Source: a virus
Length of the DNA stretch: 64,000 nucleotides
Reading direction: 5' to 3' (one strand)
IMG/VR virus record: IMGVR_UViG_3300050821_001948
Coordinates: 32,001 to 96,000 of that record
Under the pieces are notes generated by a model that saw only the letters and a program-made list of their open reading frames with translations, made no database searches and was not told the DNA's origin. This document shows, one piece after another, positions 2,733 to 55,467 of the stretch; within the stretch, counting starts at the first letter, position 1; every line of letters begins with the position of its first letter. The translations under genes and the position numbers were made by a program.

Positions 2733-3512
2733 TGTGCGCCGCCACGAACTCGGGGTATGAGAGCGTGCTGTACCAGCTATCGCGGTCAGTCTCAAGACCT
2801 TCGGGGGCGAAGGAAACTTCTTCCTTCCCTAGGTCAATTACTGCAACTGGATTAACTTCTGGTCCAGGCGCGTCATCAAGATTAAATGCTTTGAGTACAC
2901 TAGTAACCAAAGCCTGTGCGGTATCAGTCCACCAGTCAACATCCAGCGGGCCAAGGAAGCTACCCGGAAGGCCCCACGGATCAGGGCGAAGATAGAAACC
3001 TGCGGCACCTACAATCTCGGCCACATCTTCAGCCTGTGGGTATACTAGGAAGAACTTGCTTACATCGGTGATTTTACTCAGCGCCTTTCAGTCGGTGGTG
3101 GTTGGTACTATTGGACCGAAGTTGATTCCGGTTACACCATCCCACACTTTGCCAGTATAGGGAAGTCGGACAACGAAAAGTCCTAGGGTAATCCAGCGGT
3201 AGGTTCCATCAGTTCGGCGCCTCAACTCACGCTTCGCGGCGCCCTTGGTCCAGTATTCACCCCGGATGCCGACGAATGGCTCGGTTGTTTCTAGAATACC
3301 CCAGCGTTTCATTCGGGATCGAATGTTCGGGGGCCGCGTGATTCAGGTGGACCGACTTCTTTGAACCAGGACTCAGTACCATCCCAGTATTCAACGTCTT
3401 TACCGGAGAGGATGTTGTAGTATTCGCGCTCGAACAGGAACATTCTGATGGTGTAGTACCATCCGCGAATCCAGGCTCGAAATTTCCCCATACAGGCAAA
3501 CTTACCAGAAGC

Positions 3513-31682: not shown

Positions 31683-33280
31683 ATTAACGATACTAGCTTA
31701 GGTGCAAGAAACAGTCCAATTCTTCACAAGCTTGGGACCATTCGTCCCGATTGTCTTCGGTTGGGTTGGCCGTGTAAACATCCCAGGCCACCTTAGCAGC
31801 CTCACTAGCTTCGGTGATACTCATGCGGCCGTGACCATTCCCCAGGGTGAAACGCTCAAGTTGTGGTCGTGAGCGGCGCGCAAAGCGTCCTGTTTCGTGG
31901 CGAACGTCTCAGGCTCATCGCTCAGCGGAACAATTCTGTCTCCGACCGCGAATGAGTAAGTGTGGTTACGAGGGTCAAAGGCTAACTCCATGGGAATCAT
32001 CCCCTATTGTGCGATTATGGGCGATCCTGTCGTTTAGGTAATCGGCGGTCGATGTTCAGTAAAGCAAAGCCTCGTGGCAAAGGTCACAAACAGCCTCGTC
32101 GGAGCCTTCGTCAATGTCGAATACCGGCGTAATGAGGTTACCTTCGGTGTCTTTAGGTGACAATCCGATGCAATCAAAGTCGCCAGGCAAACGGTAGGTT
32201 TCACAAAGGCACGCAATGTGCCATACTGCGGCGTCGGCAGTCCAGCCGATAATAAACATGGCTACGCCTTTCTCCTATGGAATGCGTCACCATGAATCGC
32301 GCACCGATTATCGTGGTGCAGTGGTGAGTGCTTATCCGTGGAAAAGGCGGCATCCAACCGATGCCACTCGGCGCAAATCTGCTCCGGTGTCGCCTTGTGA
32401 AAGTCCAGCGCGCCATATGACACGCGGGGAGCGTTATCAAGTACGTTAGACATGAGAATCCTCCTCAGGCATCCTAGTGAAAATTGGCGCACGTGAACAC
32501 CCTAGGACCGGACCAATGTCATCGACCCTAGGGAAAGGTAAGTCTCCAGGTATGTTAGCTGGCTCATATCGCTCGCGGCGATTTGTTGGGGTCCAGTGTC
32601 ATATGGAGACTAGAGACACGCCGGGTAATGCTCCCGGAATCCACTGTGATATCGTGGACGTAACTTTACCGTGCCGCCCTGCTATCACCTTTTTGGTGTG
32701 GTGACATAACACAGAGAGTCGATGTTATTTCGGCATCGCTTATCGGGACTTAATCCCGAATCATCGCGGATTCCCTTTTCAGGTGACCATATTCTCATTA
32801 TCCATGCGCGTGGCGCATTAACCTAGAGGATTGCTAGGTGGCTTAGGTCTGGCATGTAGTAAACCATCCTACCGTTTCAAGGATAGGCGACCTACTCCAC
32901 ACCAGAGGCTTTAAGGGAGGGTGACCGGGCACCATCCGTACTTGAATAGTCGCCACGTGAGCGTGATTCTGCTCTAACGTGAATCGACTAAAAACGTCCG
33001 TTTGCGTCGCATTCCGTATGCGTCGCGCCGTTGTCTCACTCATATAGGAACGCTGAACCGCGTTCTGCGCCGTGATTCTCGTATCAATTTGCAGCACCGC
33101 TGCGCCCTAGCTCCGCTCCCGCGTGAACTACTGCACCATGACTGTGCACACATGCGCCGCGCGCTTACCGCGCTTCGCTCGCACGCTCCGTCTCTCACTT
33201 AATAAGGAACGCTGCCCCCGGACATCCGCCACAATCCGCCGAGATATTTTCGATTCACTCTAATGGGCTAATCGTGATAC

Positions 33281-44976: not shown

Positions 44977-45052
44977 CGCGGAGTGGACTGGAGTTCGGCC
45001 CCAGCACGGCCTCATAAGCCGTACGACGCAGGTTCGAATCCTGCCTCCGCCA
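44977..45052 (+). tRNA. tRNA-Met(CAT), initiator-like
   Basis: C1:C72 mismatch, loop CTCATAA. Confidence 0.85.
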
Positions 45053-45106
45053 CTGGTTGATGAATAGCATGCTTCGAGGTGACGAGCCCCCGACATTAAC
45101 CGTTAT

Positions 45107-45221: not shown

Positions 45222-45291
45222 GGGCTTTACGCTAAGGTAGCGATCCTCTTTTGCAAGGAGGCTGTAAGGGGTTCGATTCCCCTAGGGTCCA
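45222..45291 (+). tRNA. tRNA-Ala(TGC)
   Basis: G3:U70, loop TTTGCAA. Confidence 0.9.
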
Positions 45292-45292
45292 C

Positions 45293-45691
45293 GTGGGAAA
45301 TACCGAACGCAAAAGATTCATCCGAGATAAACGCAGACGAATTCTAGTCTCTGCGCTGGGTGGACTTTGTTCTAGTTGTGGTGTAGCTGAGAATCTTCAG
45401 TTTGATCACATCATCCCTGCTACAAAGGTCTTCGAAATGAGCGGTTATCATCTAGATAAGCCTTGGGTCATCCTAATAGATGAGTTGTCTAAGTGTCAGT
45501 TATTGTGTAACGATTGCCATCTCGATAAATCTAAACTAGAGGGTTCGCTCGGAACGGTAGATCACGGTGGTGGTATTAGTGGAAAGAAAAACTGCCCCTG
45601 TGTGCTATGTAAAACTCGCAAGGCTGAATATATGAAGAATTATCACTTGGGACGTTGGAGCAGCGGAGTGCTCGTCACCCTGTCAAGGTGA
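45293..45691 (+). CDS. HNH endonuclease
   Basis: LGGLCSSCG...LQFDH...KCQLLCNDCH; 3' end overlaps tRNA-Asp. Confidence 0.85.
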   Translation: MGNTERKRFIRDKRRRILVSALGGLCSSCGVAENLQFDHIIPATKVFEMSGYHLDKPWVILIDELSKCQLLCNDCHLDKSKLEGSLGTVDHGGGISGKKNCPCVLCKTRKAEYMKNYHLGRWSSGVLVTLSR

Positions 45692-45721
45692 AGGTCACGG
45701 GTTCAAATCCCGTACGTCTCG
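45649..45721 (+). tRNA. tRNA-Asp(GTC)
   Basis: Cloverleaf, loop CTGTCAA. Confidence 0.95.
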
Positions 45722-45722
45722 C

Positions 45723-47880: not shown

Positions 47881-48330
47881 ATGCCCTATGCTATCAAATT
47901 CCTTATTGTCCTAATCATCGCTGTAGTTTCGCCAGGTAAACCGCCGAATATTATCGCAGCTTCTGATACTCAGCCGGTAGTATTCAGTTATCAAGACTCC
48001 GTAAGTGCAGCATTCGCGTTCCATGATTTAATGGTTCAAGATGCACCTAAACCCAAACCTATTAAACCAACTCCGGTAGCATACAATACCGTATGGGATC
48101 ATCTAGCTCAGTGTGAGTCCTCTGGTAACTGGGCTGACACCGCTGGTATGTTTGAGGGCGGTCTCCAGTTCCTCCACTCTACATGGATCGAGTATGGCGG
48201 CGCGACCTTCGCTCAGCACGCCTACGAGGCCACCAGGGAGCAGCAGATCCTAGTGGCTACAAGAGCCTTAGCTGGGCGTCCAGACTGGTCAGCGTGGCCT
48301 GTGTGTAGCATCAAGCTTGGTCTACGATAA
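47881..48330 (+). CDS. rpf: Resuscitation-promoting factor (Rpf) transglycosylase, probably secreted
   Basis: WDHLAQCESSGNW...GGLQF..STW..YGG...A..ATREQQI...AWPVC; hydrophobic N-terminus. Confidence 0.9.
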   Translation: MPYAIKFLIVLIIAVVSPGKPPNIIAASDTQPVVFSYQDSVSAAFAFHDLMVQDAPKPKPIKPTPVAYNTVWDHLAQCESSGNWADTAGMFEGGLQFLHSTWIEYGGATFAQHAYEATREQQILVATRALAGRPDWSAWPVCSIKLGLR

Positions 48331-48580: not shown

Positions 48581-48762
48581 AATGTGATATGATGAAGCTG
48601 CCCTGTGCGTGGGGCGCGCGACCTGTTGCGGGAAGCGGCACGTACCGGAAGGTCGGTAGGCTGGGGTAGCCGATCACCGTTAAACACTACCCAGACGCAA
48701 CCTCTTCATAGGCATTCGTGCCCGTCTCCCCGGCGCGTTGAAGAGTATGTAGCCGGGGTTTA

Positions 48763-48838
48763 GCTTCTATAGCTCAGTGGAAAGAGCGTCTGGCTACGAA
48801 CCAGAAGGTCGGGAGTTCGAATCTCTCTAGGGGCACCA
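48763..48838 (+). tRNA. tRNA-Arg(ACG), CCA encoded
   Basis: Cloverleaf, loop CTACGAA. Confidence 0.95.
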
Positions 48839-48897
48839 TCGTTCAGAGGCCAAACGGTCAGGCACCGCTCTCATAAGGCGGGCAACCCGCCGATATT

Positions 48898-49365
48898 ATG
48901 AAAGTGAAGAATTGTTCAAATTGCAAGCAAACCAAACCGCACAGTGAGTTTGGCCGTAACGTAGCTACGAAAGATGGTTTACAGTATCACTGTAAGCAGT
49001 GTCGAAACGCTTACCTGAAAACTTGGTACTCTGAGAACAAGGACTTACAAAAAAGTCGAGTCCAGAAAAATACCAAAAAGAAGGTTGATGACCGCAGAAA
49101 TTTGATACGGGAAATCAAAGAGTCGACACCATGCGCAGACTGTGGTATCCTCTACCCTCCGTACGTCATGGATTTCGACCACCTCCCCGGAAGTGAGAAG
49201 ATTACATCCATCTCATCCTTATCGCAAGGATGGCGTGGGAGCGTCGAGATACTAAAAGCGGAGATCCTAAAGTGTGAGCTTGTATGTGCCAACTGTCACA
49301 GAATTAGAACTCACAAAAGGCGCGTCAACGCTGGGAAGCCGAAGGGTGAGGCACCTCTCTCATAA
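48898..49365 (+). CDS. HNH endonuclease inside the split tRNA
   Basis: CSNC...CKQC Zn finger; CADCG..YPPYVMDFDH...KCELVCANCHRIRT. Confidence 0.9.
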   Translation: MKVKNCSNCKQTKPHSEFGRNVATKDGLQYHCKQCRNAYLKTWYSENKDLQKSRVQKNTKKKVDDRRNLIREIKESTPCADCGILYPPYVMDFDHLPGSEKITSISSLSQGWRGSVEILKAEILKCELVCANCHRIRTHKRRVNAGKPKGEAPLS

Positions 49366-49403
49366 AGAGGCCGTCGTGGGCTCGACTCCCACTCCAGCGA
49401 CCA
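49329..49403 (+). tRNA. CAT-anticodon tRNA (probably Met), intact, nested inside the split tRNA, CCA encoded
   Basis: CGCTGGG/TCCAGCG acceptor, loop CTCATAA. Confidence 0.9.
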
Positions 49404-49446
49404 TCTAACCGGGTATAGTTGGTTCGATTCCAACCTGGACGACCAT

Positions 49447-49518
49447 CGGCTCGTAGCTCAGAGGAAGAGCACGCGGTTCCTATCCGTGGTGTCGGGGGTT
49501 CGACTCCCTCCGGGCCGA
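49447..49518 (+). tRNA. tRNA-Arg(CCT)
   Basis: Cloverleaf, loop TTCCTAT. Confidence 0.9.
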
Positions 49519-49524
49519 CAATGG

Positions 49525-49848
49525 TCACACTGTCCTGGGTGCCCGTTCCCGTTCTTGACGACTCATCTCTAGGATGAAGTCAGTAATCTCGTCTTCGGTG
49601 ATAGCTGGGCCTTGGGGATTGGATTCTACCAGCTCTAGTGGTACATGGCTCAGTACGTGCTCAACCATAGGGAACAGAAGCGCCACTATTGCAGAGTTAG
49701 CATCCCTCTGGTAAGCTTGGGAACACTTAGAGCAAACGAATTCGTAATATGGTTTACCGTAGGGGTCGTCAAATAGATAGAGGGTCACACGCTCAGGCGT
49801 TAATTCAACCCTTCCATCTATCGGGCAAACTACAGCAATACCATTCAT
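49525..49848 (-). CDS. Zn-binding hypothetical protein
   Basis: CP.DG.V.L...Y.FVC..C...GPAIT.DEI.DF; start 15 nt from TGCGATAA. Confidence 0.7.
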   Translation of the reverse strand: MNGIAVVCPIDGRVELTPERVTLYLFDDPYGKPYYEFVCSKCSQAYQRDANSAIVALLFPMVEHVLSHVPLELVESNPQGPAITEDEITDFILEMSRQERERAPRTV

Positions 49849-49911
49849 AGTGTTATTATCGCACGTGACGCAAACCGATATGAATTCTACAACTGAATAG
49901 GGTTTACACAT

Positions 49912-50270
49912 GGGGGTGCCGGGTTTCGACGGCATCTGCTGATGTGAGAGAAGCGAGCAAGACCAAGGTAACACGGAAGTCTTTCAAAACTCTTGTTGCA
50001 TAAAATAAATGAGGCATTCGTGCCCGCTCGTTCTTACGCTCTCGTAGCCTAGGAACCGTCAGCCCGAGGATTCCTCGACTCGGTAACTGGCGTCAGCTAG
50101 AGGAACGCTCTCCGATTAGGTGTTCGAGTAGTCGGAGCTAAGATACACGAACTAAGCTCACCGGATGAGTCCCGCAATGCCGGAAGCTGACATTTAAGAC
50201 CGGGACTACGCTCGTAGAAGAAGCACAAACGTAATGTCGGACGGGAGTTCAACTCTCCCCACCTCCACCA
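49912..50270 (+). ncRNA. ssrA: tmRNA
   Basis: GGGGGTG/CACCTCC-ACCA with G3:U70, GGTTTCGAC, T arm; tag frame (E)AFVPARSYALVA-stop. Confidence 0.95.
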
Positions 50271-53359: not shown

Positions 53360-54586
53360 GTGCAGTTAGACGATCTGATTGATCCAGAAGCCCTACGTAA
53401 GAAAATAGATCTTGGCCACGTAGCTGAGCGCCACCACTGTACCCTCCCCCTAGCTATCCTAAATTACACGGCCCGATGCCAGTACGCTAACGACTGGGAT
53501 GAGGTCACCTCAAAGACTCGTGGTTTAATTTACAACACTGAGACAGGTAAGATTGTCGCTAGGCCCTTCGAGAAGTTCTTCAATCTGGGTCAGCACACTG
53601 ATGATGAGATCCCTACTGGACCCATACGTGTCTTAGAGAAGATGGACGGTTCTCTTGGGATTCTTTATGACACACCGGATGGGTTAGCTATCGCAACTCG
53701 CGGATCATTTCATAGCGAACAGGCTGAGCACGCAACTGAGGTTCTCCGATTCAACATAGAGCACTATTATGGTCCAGGCTCTAAGCTTCCGTTTAGTCCA
53801 GACCTTGAGAATCATACATATCTTTTCGAGATCATCTATCCAGCGAATCGCATCGTTGTGGATTATGGATCAAAAGATCTGTTAGTGCTTTTGGATGTTT
53901 TGGATATTGAGACAGGAATGGCAGTTCCTGAGTTCGATCTGTATGATCAGCGTTATTATTTTGGACCTCATGTTTATCGTCATGAGGGGATTAAAAGCCT
54001 TTCTGAATTGATCGACAGAGATGTGCCAAATGCCGAAGGCTATGTCGTTGTTTTTGACAATAACTTCCGTGTTAAGGTCAAGCACGCTGAGTATGTTCGG
54101 CTACATAGAATTCTAACGAACGTTACTGCTCGTAGTATTTATGAGTGTATAGCTGTAGAGGATCTAAAGAAGAGGGGCTTCGGAGCCAAGGAGATAGCAC
54201 GATCTATTAGTATTAGCGACGAAGAGGTTGAAGATTATCCCTCACTAGCGCAGCTTCTAGACGGAGTTCCGGATGAGTTCTACTCTTGGGTCCACAAGGT
54301 GGTTCATCGACTAGAAACGGCATTCTCCGAGATTGAATCTGAGGCCAAGATTGAGTTCTTGAATAATTTAGCCTTCATCGATGTCCCCCTTCCCGGCTTT
54401 GAAGAATTCGATCAGCAGCCAGTGAAGGATGGTCGAGCTGAGTTCGCTAAGGTTGCGCAGAAGAGTAAGTATGCTAGTATGATGTTCCTGATGTATGATG
54501 GTAAGCCTTACCACCAAGCTATCTGGAAGATATTGCGCCCCGAGCACGAGAAGCCATTTGGAGAAAGGACAGAGGATGTATCGTGA
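53360..54586 (+). CDS. T4 Rnl1-like RNA ligase
   Basis: RGL...IVARPFEKFFN, EKMDGSL, FEII, EGYVV, RVKVK. Confidence 0.9.
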   Translation: MQLDDLIDPEALRKKIDLGHVAERHHCTLPLAILNYTARCQYANDWDEVTSKTRGLIYNTETGKIVARPFEKFFNLGQHTDDEIPTGPIRVLEKMDGSLGILYDTPDGLAIATRGSFHSEQAEHATEVLRFNIEHYYGPGSKLPFSPDLENHTYLFEIIYPANRIVVDYGSKDLLVLLDVLDIETGMAVPEFDLYDQRYYFGPHVYRHEGIKSLSELIDRDVPNAEGYVVVFDNNFRVKVKHAEYVRLHRILTNVTARSIYECIAVEDLKKRGFGAKEIARSISISDEEVEDYPSLAQLLDGVPDEFYSWVHKVVHRLETAFSEIESEAKIEFLNNLAFIDVPLPGFEEFDQQPVKDGRAEFAKVAQKSKYASMMFLMYDGKPYHQAIWKILRPEHEKPFGERTEDVS

Positions 54587-55467
54587 GTGATCGTAGAGAT
54601 TTCTACATGACCAAGGGCCTCCCTGGCTCCGGGAAGAGCACCTGGGCAGCCGAGTACGTCCTGAATAGGGCTCCTGGTAAGGCTGTTAGGGTCAACCAAG
54701 ATTTACTTCGGATTATGTTGCACCTTGACCGCTTCGGTGGAGGTAAGACCGAGCCTCTCGTTCAGGGCGGTCGTAGCCTGTTAATCGAACTCGCTATGCA
54801 AAACAACGTTGAGGTTGTTATTAGTGACGATACCAACTTTCATCCCGATTGCGAAAAGGAATTTCGTAGGTTATGTGAGAAGCATGGTTATCAGTTCACG
54901 ATTAAGGACTTCACTGATGTTCCTGTTGAGGAATGCATCAAGCGTGACTTGAAGCGCACAGCCTCTGTTGGTGAACAGGTCATCCGCAAGATGTGGCGTC
55001 GTTACTTAGTTCCTCCGAAGGCTCCCACTAACCCGGAGGACTTCGATCCCAACCTACCGACAGCCGTTATGGTAGATATTGACGGAACTGTGGCTATTAT
55101 GAATGGTCGAGGTCCCTATGACCCAACTCTCTACCACACCGATATTCCACACAAACCCGTAGTTCAGCTAGTTAAGGACTTACACGCTGCTGGTGAGGAG
55201 ATAGTTTTCTGCTCGGGTCGAGATGATACTTACTGGCAGGAAACTCATAATTGGCTCACTACCCACCTTGGGTTCCTTCCTAATCACCTCTTCATGCGTC
55301 CGGCCGCTGATAAGCGTAAGGATGCCATCGTAAAGAAGGAACTCTACGAGGCAAAGATAAAAGGTAAGTTCAATATTCGTTTCGTTCTAGATGACCGTAA
55401 TCAGGTTGTTGAGATGTGGCGCGATGAGGGGCTTACTTGCCTCCAGGTTGCTGATGGGAATTTCTAA
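54583..55467 (+). CDS. pseT: Polynucleotide 5'-kinase/3'-phosphatase (PseT-like)
   Basis: GLPGSGKST, DDTN, DIDGT, SGR, DDRNQVV.MWR. Confidence 0.92.
   Translation: MSDRRDFYMTKGLPGSGKSTWAAEYVLNRAPGKAVRVNQDLLRIMLHLDRFGGGKTEPLVQGGRSLLIELAMQNNVEVVISDDTNFHPDCEKEFRRLCEKHGYQFTIKDFTDVPVEECIKRDLKRTASVGEQVIRKMWRRYLVPPKAPTNPEDFDPNLPTAVMVDIDGTVAIMNGRGPYDPTLYHTDIPHKPVVQLVKDLHAAGEEIVFCSGRDDTYWQETHNWLTTHLGFLPNHLFMRPAADKRKDAIVKKELYEAKIKGKFNIRFVLDDRNQVVEMWRDEGLTCLQVADGNF

Follow-up and report, generated by a model that had tools for sequence, protein, structure and literature searches.

Homing endonuclease genes spare their carriers in two ways, either by residing in self-splicing introns or inteins or by being placed between genes. 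Described here is a transfer RNA (tRNA) gene with the anticodon CAT that is split by an insert holding an HNH endonuclease gene and a second, intact tRNA(CAT) gene, referred to below as the outer and the inner (or cargo) tRNA. The locus lies in a tRNA array within a stretch of 64,000 nucleotides (nt), called the window throughout, which is part (positions 32,001 to 96,000) of the 130.6-kb metagenomic virus record IMGVR_UViG_3300050821_001948 and has a G+C content of about 50%. Among the systems described so far, SegB of the T4 and T6 tRNA cluster is a free-standing GIY-YIG homing endonuclease whose cleavage sites lie within tRNA genes and which recognises a motif of the T loop (PMC2330249). 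The enzyme is able to bring about amplification of tRNA segments, and its co-location with tRNAs is widespread (PMC13096335); according to the accessible text of both reports it is inherited along with neighbouring tRNA genes (PMC2330249, PMC13096335). SegB resembles the window HNH gene in being a homing-endonuclease gene in a phage tRNA array. It differs by its GIY-YIG fold, by sitting between genes and by recognising the T loop of many tRNAs, while the window protein is an HNH enzyme encoded inside a tRNA gene; a split target with a cargo tRNA of the same anticodon is not described in the accessible text on SegB (PMC2330249, PMC13096335). HNH genes outnumber other protein genes in the tRNA arrays of mycobacteria and phages, where they were suggested to move tRNA genes and to diversify the tRNA repertoire, as far as the available sections of these reports go (PMC5966550, PMC6582537, PMC6409571). 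The window gene belongs to the same protein class and occurs in the same setting. The actinophage and mycobacterial genes were, however, described by adjacency only, and insertion into a tRNA gene, a fixed breakpoint and a fused cognate tRNA are absent from those sections.

Integrative elements in tRNA genes carry a replacement of the part that they displace, which is the same principle as in the window cassette. They rely on an integrase with attachment sites and in most cases rebuild the 3' end of the very gene they enter, whereas at the window a nuclease gene brings a whole second tRNA. Among intron-bearing tRNAs, an example with the CAT anticodon is tRNA-fMet. Group I introns with homing endonucleases resemble the window in that an endonuclease is inserted inside a tRNA gene, as described in the accessible part of the source (PMC3984707). 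In contrast to them, no ribozyme was detected at the split tRNA, the site at tRNA positions 41-44 is not in the anticodon loop, and a spare gene takes the place of splicing. Archaeal split and permuted tRNAs have halves that are encoded apart, like the outer pieces at the window, but in the available text these halves are joined by a splicing endonuclease and a ligase at a bulge-helix-bulge, none of which was seen at the window locus (PMC4090602). No description of a tRNA gene split by a cassette of an HNH gene plus a cognate tRNA was found in the literature searched, as far as its accessible text reaches, and the locus would represent a variant of the free-standing homing elements, one inside a tRNA gene that replaces what it breaks. 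We consider it likely that a mobile cassette of an HNH gene with its own tRNA(CAT) was inserted into a resident tRNA(CAT) gene, that the outer pieces are the scar and that no splicing takes place. The insertion, its exact ends and the occurrence of the same design in other phages are demonstrated by the comparisons below, for which the features of the locus are as follows.

48840 to 48882, plus strand: 5' piece of the outer tRNA(CAT), with the 5' strand of the acceptor stem, the D arm, the full anticodon arm and the first variable-loop base.
48877 to 48891, plus strand: hairpin GGCGGG-CAA-CCCGCC, a perfect 6-bp stem that spans the left junction and is present in the minimum-energy and centroid folds.
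48879 to 48882, plus strand: first copy of the flanking repeat, CGGG, the final 4 nt of the outer 5' piece.
48883 to 49413 (equally 48879 to 49409), plus strand: insert of 531 bp, missing from the allele of a relative on a contig of sequencing run X1.
48898 to 49365, plus strand: HNH endonuclease gene of 155 codons for amino acids (aa), an apparently intact open reading frame (ORF).
49329 to 49403, plus strand: inner tRNA(CAT), called by ARAGORN and matched by the Rfam tRNA family (48.9 bits, expectation value (E) 3.4e-09, gathering score 29).
49414 to 49445, plus strand: 3' piece of the outer tRNA(CAT), with the remainder of the variable loop (TATA), the T arm, the 3' strand of the acceptor stem and ACCA.

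The insert contains, in this order, a short leader, the HNH gene, the inner tRNA, a 6-nt trailer and the second CGGG copy (49410-49413). The stop codon TAA of the HNH gene consists of the last anticodon base and two loop bases of the inner tRNA, and the ORF ends 37 nt inside that gene. The inner tRNA has an encoded CCA and a non-standard T loop (CTCGACT), while the T arm of the outer 3' piece is standard (GTTGG-TTCGATT-CCAAC). Both tRNAs have a common build (C1-G72, A8, a GCC/GGC D stem, the loop CTCATAA and A73), with 30 of 36 aligned bases identical between the inner tRNA and the outer 5' piece. The nested layout of outer CAT pieces around an HNH gene and an intact inner CAT tRNA, first proposed in a reading of the letters alone (the original prediction), was thus recovered with ARAGORN, Rfam, the ORF list and in-silico joins. 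The proposed pairing of the outer acceptor stem was likewise borne out at 7 of 7 positions, one of them G-T, while the insert length, given as 520 nt, had to be corrected to 531 nt by the uninterrupted allele of the relative. With the insert removed in silico, ARAGORN reported a tRNA(CAT) at 48840-49445 in 327 of 440 joins, and in a larger join set the outer tRNA was called Met in 403 of 2000 joins and Gly in 10. The computed 75-nt join forms a cloverleaf at -26.3 kcal/mol, as stable as which were 6 of 300 mononucleotide shuffles. The outer pieces behave as parts of a once-intact tRNA, as the joins rebuild a cloverleaf and an intact allele exists in run X1.

The sequencing-run search returned no run with half of the window's words and no RNA data set with the window, and the contigs of three runs with small shares were placed on the window at 80% likeness. 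One contig of run X1, from a soil metagenome (415 nt, depth 5.4, about 91% identical), matches 48629-48878 and then 49410-49572 without a gap. This joint from 48878 to 49410 skips 531 nt, with four letters (CGGG) fitting either side and 163 nt on the shorter side; the first piece has 23 differences and 6 gaps and the second 7 differences. The X1 allele is an unbroken 75-nt tRNA(CAT) with the variable loop GTATA, and 48848 G>A is the sole listed difference to the outer tRNA (1 of 75 positions). In the upstream spacer about 11 of 134 positions differ, i.e., about 1 in 10. Because both flanks contain unique non-tRNA sequence and the spacer has diverged to this degree, the source is a related phage and no stray tRNA. 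It follows from the empty allele that the outer gene was once whole, that the 531-bp block of HNH gene and inner tRNA entered as a unit, and that the insertion left a 4-bp duplication of tRNA positions 41-44.

That two strain variants were stitched together in a metagenomic contig and produced the locus as an assembly artefact is scarcely credible. The record was assembled from a metagenome and no run holding the window was found, which speaks for such an error, but the joins have only 4 nt in common, too few for a k-mer assembler, and the same architecture is present in the finished genomes of the phages Wofford and Riptide as well as in an independent contig (L008, described below).

The near search of 48740-49540 against cultured phages gave zero matches, and the distant search matched the flanking tRNA-Arg genes only, with none of the matches spanning 80% of the query. 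By tblastn, the best match of the window HNH protein was gp171 of the Streptomyces phage Wofford (NC_048722.1) with 44% identity. The annotation of this genome lists a tRNA-Met, an HNH endonuclease and a tRNA-Met, of which the HNH gene overlaps the second tRNA by 38 nt, and gp171, like the window HNH gene, takes its stop codon from the TAA in the CAT anticodon loop. In the 75-nt "spacer" ahead of gp171, the initial 40 nt are the beginning of a third tRNA(CAT). At 96311-97083, Wofford carries a 5' piece of Met2 (the second tRNA-Met of phage Elmer), HNH gp171, the inner tRNA-Met, a 59-codon ORF and the Met2 3' piece; this split tRNA-Met around gp171 is unannotated in the published genome. Wofford equals Elmer Met2 up to the third base past the anticodon loop and then diverges, and its 3' piece is identical to Elmer Met2 at 29 of 29 nt and continues into common downstream sequence. 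The insertion site lacks three bases (canonical positions 42-44), and ARAGORN found tRNA-Met in 103 of 288 joins of the Wofford pieces.

Met2 is unbroken in the sequences of Elmer and Wipeout. In the near search, Elmer and Karimac matched both Wofford flanks without the approximately 700 bp in between, and about 20 further phages, in whose annotation two tRNA-Met genes are neighbours and an HNH gene is absent, matched up to the 5' piece. Among the phages of the near-search table, an HNH gene at the Met2 locus occurred only in Wofford, Riptide, and Anedea. Presence of the cassette is hence patchy next to uninterrupted target alleles, and the relatives with such an allele that had been proposed as a check are provided by X1 and by the tRNA-Met of Elmer and Wipeout. 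In Riptide, the 3' piece is reduced to about 19 nt and the 5' strand of its T stem is gone, which indicates that leftover pieces can decay. Like the window, Wofford has an insertion after position 41 of a resident tRNA(CAT) with both leftover pieces kept. Unlike the window, its cassette measures about 700 bp, contains the additional 59-codon ORF and has an unrelated leader, and its 3-bp loss contrasts with the 4-bp duplication of the window at the same site. The nested design, the position and the overlap of HNH gene and tRNA are thus common to HNH genes that are only 44% identical.

Decayed pieces also bear on a functional split tRNA, in which the array transcript would fold around the insert with the outer acceptor and T arms formed, RNase P and 3' processing would free the inner tRNA, and the outer halves, once trimmed, would work as a nicked molecule or be sealed by Rnl1 and PNKP. 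The 3'-OH and 5'-phosphate ends produced by RNase P and by 3' processing can be joined by an Rnl1-type ligase, and genes for Rnl1 (PF09511, 58.8 bits) and PNKP (PF25109, 172.7 bits) lie adjacent at 53360-55467, about 4 kb downstream of the array. Completeness of the outer pieces with their fully paired acceptor and the single difference to the intact allele would also fit. After excision of the inner tRNA, however, the 5' piece would still end in about 450 nt of HNH message, and we know of nothing that trims this message back to tRNA position 44. In the ordinary role of Rnl1 and PNKP, damage by anticodon nucleases is repaired; RtcB was not found in the phage, and an Rnl2-type match stayed under its cut-off. 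One of the pieces is cut back or gone in homologous cassettes (Riptide and the contigs L020 and L064), and the inner tRNA of the same build already serves the CAT anticodon.

The predicted folding of the region argues in the same direction. While ACCCG and CGGGT had been thought to form a stem closing the insert, CGGGT represents positions 41-45 of the tRNA itself, of which CGGG is present at both ends of the insert as a duplication. When all 606 nt are folded, the minimum-energy structure places ACCCG in the local hairpin at 48877-48891 instead. In this fold the 5' acceptor strand is paired elsewhere, and neither the outer acceptor stem nor the outer cloverleaf is formed. Rfam matches up to E 10 within 48600-49700 included no intron family and hence no group I or II ribozyme core, in agreement with the original prediction; a bulge-helix-bulge was not searched for beyond Rfam. 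The suggestion that the two-piece outer tRNA works as it is or after ligation received no support from introns, from the whole-region fold or from the Riptide 3' piece, and we regard it as highly improbable. If it were true, a bacterial virus would possess a way of splicing a tRNA with proteins only and without an intron.

The wider family was surveyed in 80 IMG/VR loci (numbered with the prefix L) that encode relatives of the window HNH with identities of up to 48%. tRNAs were present in 35 of these 80 loci, and in 14 of the 80 a same-strand tRNA had its start in the interval from 24 nt ahead of the HNH stop to 6 nt past it, corresponding to 13 distinct sequences since L001 equals L002. Thirteen upstream gaps of at least 25 nt were examined. 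For the window, L001, and L003, the best matches of these gaps were tRNAs whose amino acid is that of the tRNA following the HNH gene. 5' pieces with the same anticodon occurred in L003 (GTG), L008 (TCT), and L078 (TCC) and, more weakly, in L001 and L025; L008 and L078 were less clear by score, and direct reading revealed their anticodon arms with TCT and TCC, respectively. The anticodon stem is paired at exactly three positions (39-41) in Wofford, L003, and L078, at four in L008, at two in Riptide (with one substitution) and at none in L001, while the junction range of the window (40|41 to 44|45) takes in the breakpoint at position 41.

L008 is fully nested, as pieces at 2945 and 3512 rebuild a tRNA-Arg(TCT) in 529 ARAGORN joins. 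Between these pieces, behind the HNH gene, lies an Arg(TCT)-like element (3411-3487) composed of an acceptor stem of 7 bp, an anticodon arm with TCT and a T arm, with about 7 nt in the place of the D arm and a 19-nt variable region that holds the HNH stop. L020 and L064 retain only an orphan 3' piece of T arm and acceptor strand after the cargo tRNA, and L001, L003, L025, and L078 only a 5' piece. In a blind join-scan over the 80 loci ARAGORN also accepted chimeras of unrelated neighbouring tRNAs, and raw hits were not counted for this reason. With both pieces limited to uncalled gaps, a tRNA was rebuilt in L008 only, one of the nine loci scanned (L001, L003, L008, L020, L025, L038, L057, L064, and L078, the window being left out). 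Judging from the Riptide remnant and from L020 and L064 with their 3' piece only, the leftover pieces appear to be dispensable. The empty allele, the cassettes of cultured phages and the 5' pieces of matching anticodon together give good support to the second suggestion of the original prediction, in which a homing cassette of HNH gene and tRNA invades a tRNA(CAT) gene and brings along the substitute for it.

The same comparisons weigh on a passive arrival, in which illegitimate recombination or end-joining in a recombination-prone tRNA array would have brought in the block with the HNH gene as a passenger or inactive. The 4-bp duplication here and the 3-bp loss in Wofford would be marks of imprecise joining, unlike clean homologous homing. 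Against this stand the same breakpoint after position 41 and the matching anticodons of target and cargo in at least four lineages with different anticodons, the conserved catalytic and zinc-binding residues of the HNH protein, and the patchy distribution among near-identical Streptomyces phages, which is typical of homing genes. On balance, passive arrival seems unlikely.

The 155-aa protein was assigned to phrog_2255, "HNH endonuclease", with an E of 6.2e-35, and its closest HNH matches are from phages of Streptomyces, Gordonia, and Mycobacterium. In an alignment of 12 sequences (the window protein and 11 relatives), D94-H95, N132, and H134 are invariant, as are the cysteines C9, C32, C35, C79, C82, C130, and C133, with C6 nearly so. 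The D-H, N, and H represent the catalytic residues, which are accompanied by two CxxC pairs, and three of the four N-terminal cysteines are invariant. By phrog_2255 and this alignment, the protein has an HNH (beta-beta-alpha-metal) motif with zinc-binding cysteines. The tail past the last conserved Arg is variable and is the part encoded by the overlap with the tRNA. A PDB sequence search with the 155-aa protein gave chance matches only (E 0.036). The gene looks intact, with its catalytic and zinc-binding residues kept.

For the identity of the inner and outer tRNAs, ARAGORN called two CAT tRNAs in the whole genome, the inner tRNA and an initiator-like tRNA at 44977-45053 with a C1/C72 mismatch. 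ATA accounts for 7 per 1000 codons in long ORFs, and a tRNA-Ile(TAT) is missing from the genome. A8 is common to the inner and outer tRNA, yet it occurs in 37 of 352 array tRNAs. Given the ATA usage without tRNA-Ile(TAT) and the presence of only two CAT tRNAs, an Ile2 type is conceivable, and the inner and outer tRNAs could be a lysidine-type tRNA-Ile and not tRNA-Met.

Under the preferred reading, the HNH enzyme would cut an uninterrupted tRNA(CAT) gene near positions 41-45, and repair would copy the cassette in. Positions 41-44, where the cassette sits, fall in the 3' half of the anticodon stem and the beginning of the variable loop. A staggered break with imprecise repair is suggested by the 4-bp duplication here as opposed to the 3-bp loss in Wofford. 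Anticodon stem, variable loop and T loop of the cargo tRNA are unlike those of the target, so that this tRNA would resist cutting; being immune, it would take over decoding, which would make the insertion cheap for the phage, and the outer pieces would be non-functional leftovers. Among tRNAs behind HNH genes the T-loop motif TTCRA is missing in 6 of 15, compared with 39 of 337 others (Fisher p 0.0065, a post hoc comparison), and in both CAT pairs (window and Wofford) the target T loop is standard while that of the cargo is not. The deviating T loops may signal that the cargo tRNAs are immune to the nuclease, and "odd" tRNAs of phages may in part originate here.

Several points weigh against this reading. 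Homing and cutting by the HNH protein are deduced from sequence comparison, a point that counts for passive arrival as well, and Pfam returned no family for the 155-aa protein at E 0.01, with the HNH model PF01844 unmatched. The empty allele is represented by one low-depth contig and was taken from an alignment table rather than from directly read sequence. The window's own reads were not found (best word share 0.09), so that its junctions stand as assembled. The 1 in 75 change in the outer pieces fits a recent insertion but also continued selection. By a rough hand Poisson estimate, about 3.4 differences would be expected if the outer pieces had been neutral since the split (P about 0.15); the near-unchanged pieces are compatible with a recent insertion and by themselves give no argument for function. 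The inner and outer tRNA may be of the Met or the Ile2 type, and their presumed same function follows from the common build. The cargo T loop is unusual (C at position 54), and decoding may be poorer than by the tRNA it replaces. In the wider family, the 5' pieces of L001 and L025 are weak, and the inner tRNA of L008 was read manually, with no call by ARAGORN.

Landing inside an essential-type gene and bringing a cut-resistant copy would be a third way for homing endonuclease genes to avoid harm. That HNH genes are strewn through the tRNA arrays of actinobacterial phages is an old observation, for which the cassette would offer a concrete mechanism. Arrays could gain, lose, and swap tRNAs one cognate at a time at the fixed position 41/42, and the consistently odd cargo T loops may explain the non-canonical look of many phage tRNAs. 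The cultured phages Wofford, with the cassette, and Elmer and Karimac, without it, provide a ready experimental system.

The motif GCCGATAT at 48889-48896, originally predicted as a promoter straddling the 5' junction, turned out to lie wholly inside the insert. It is not enriched, with three occurrences in the window versus 2.1 expected and 32 of 100 shuffles reaching three, and a consensus promoter scan found nothing at the insert junction. A -10-like box (GATATAAT or GTATAAT) was observed 5-25 nt before the HNH start in L001, L008, L025, L033, L038, and L064, which suggests that these cassettes carry their own promoter with a very short leader; directly before the HNH ATG, the window has only GATATT (48892-48897). 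In the junction hairpin at 48877-48891, one arm derives from the target tRNA and the other from the first bases of the insert. It could be a trace of fold-back repair or a chance occurrence, and on reading nothing resembling it was seen in the cassettes of L003, L008, L078, and Wofford.

A contig of run X3 (76.5 kb, depth 142.6), from a second and abundant relative, matches 49413-49536, i.e., the outer 3' piece and tRNA-Arg(CCT), at 119 of 124 positions; its left side was unseen, and it was not used as evidence. An exact scan with the motif of the outer 5' piece found seven viral contigs, which were rejected as orthologues because the common sequence is the anticodon arm only, and the exact scan with the 3'-piece motif gave no match.

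By ARAGORN, the window contains 33 tRNA genes and one transfer-messenger RNA (tmRNA) gene between 43183 and 50484. A tRNA-Arg(ACG) at 48763-48838 precedes the outer 5' piece, and a tRNA-Arg(CCT) begins directly after 49445. A gene for an Rpf-type cell-wall enzyme (PF06737) lies within the array at 47881-48330; no relative of its product was found in IMG/VR, and in a large protein database the window's own protein and relatives on short contigs with identities of up to 71% were the only matches. The terminase has a best identity of 36.6% among cultured phages. Taken together, the Rpf gene, the terminase distance and the HNH matches suggest an actinobacterial host.

A second HNH gene of another family (phrog_4234, E 2.8e-26) at 45293-45691 starts one base past a tRNA-Ala (45222-45292) and extends 43 nt into a tRNA-Asp (45649-45722). 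It scored 17.9 bits against the Pfam HNH model, which has a cut-off of 21.4, and no tRNA pieces were seen when its surroundings were read. On the minus strand, a cysteine-rich ORF of 149 aa at 49525-49974, for which neither Pfam nor PHROG gave a match, extends across the 5' end of the oppositely oriented tmRNA gene (49912-50270). The tag peptide of this tmRNA is EAFVPARSYALVA.

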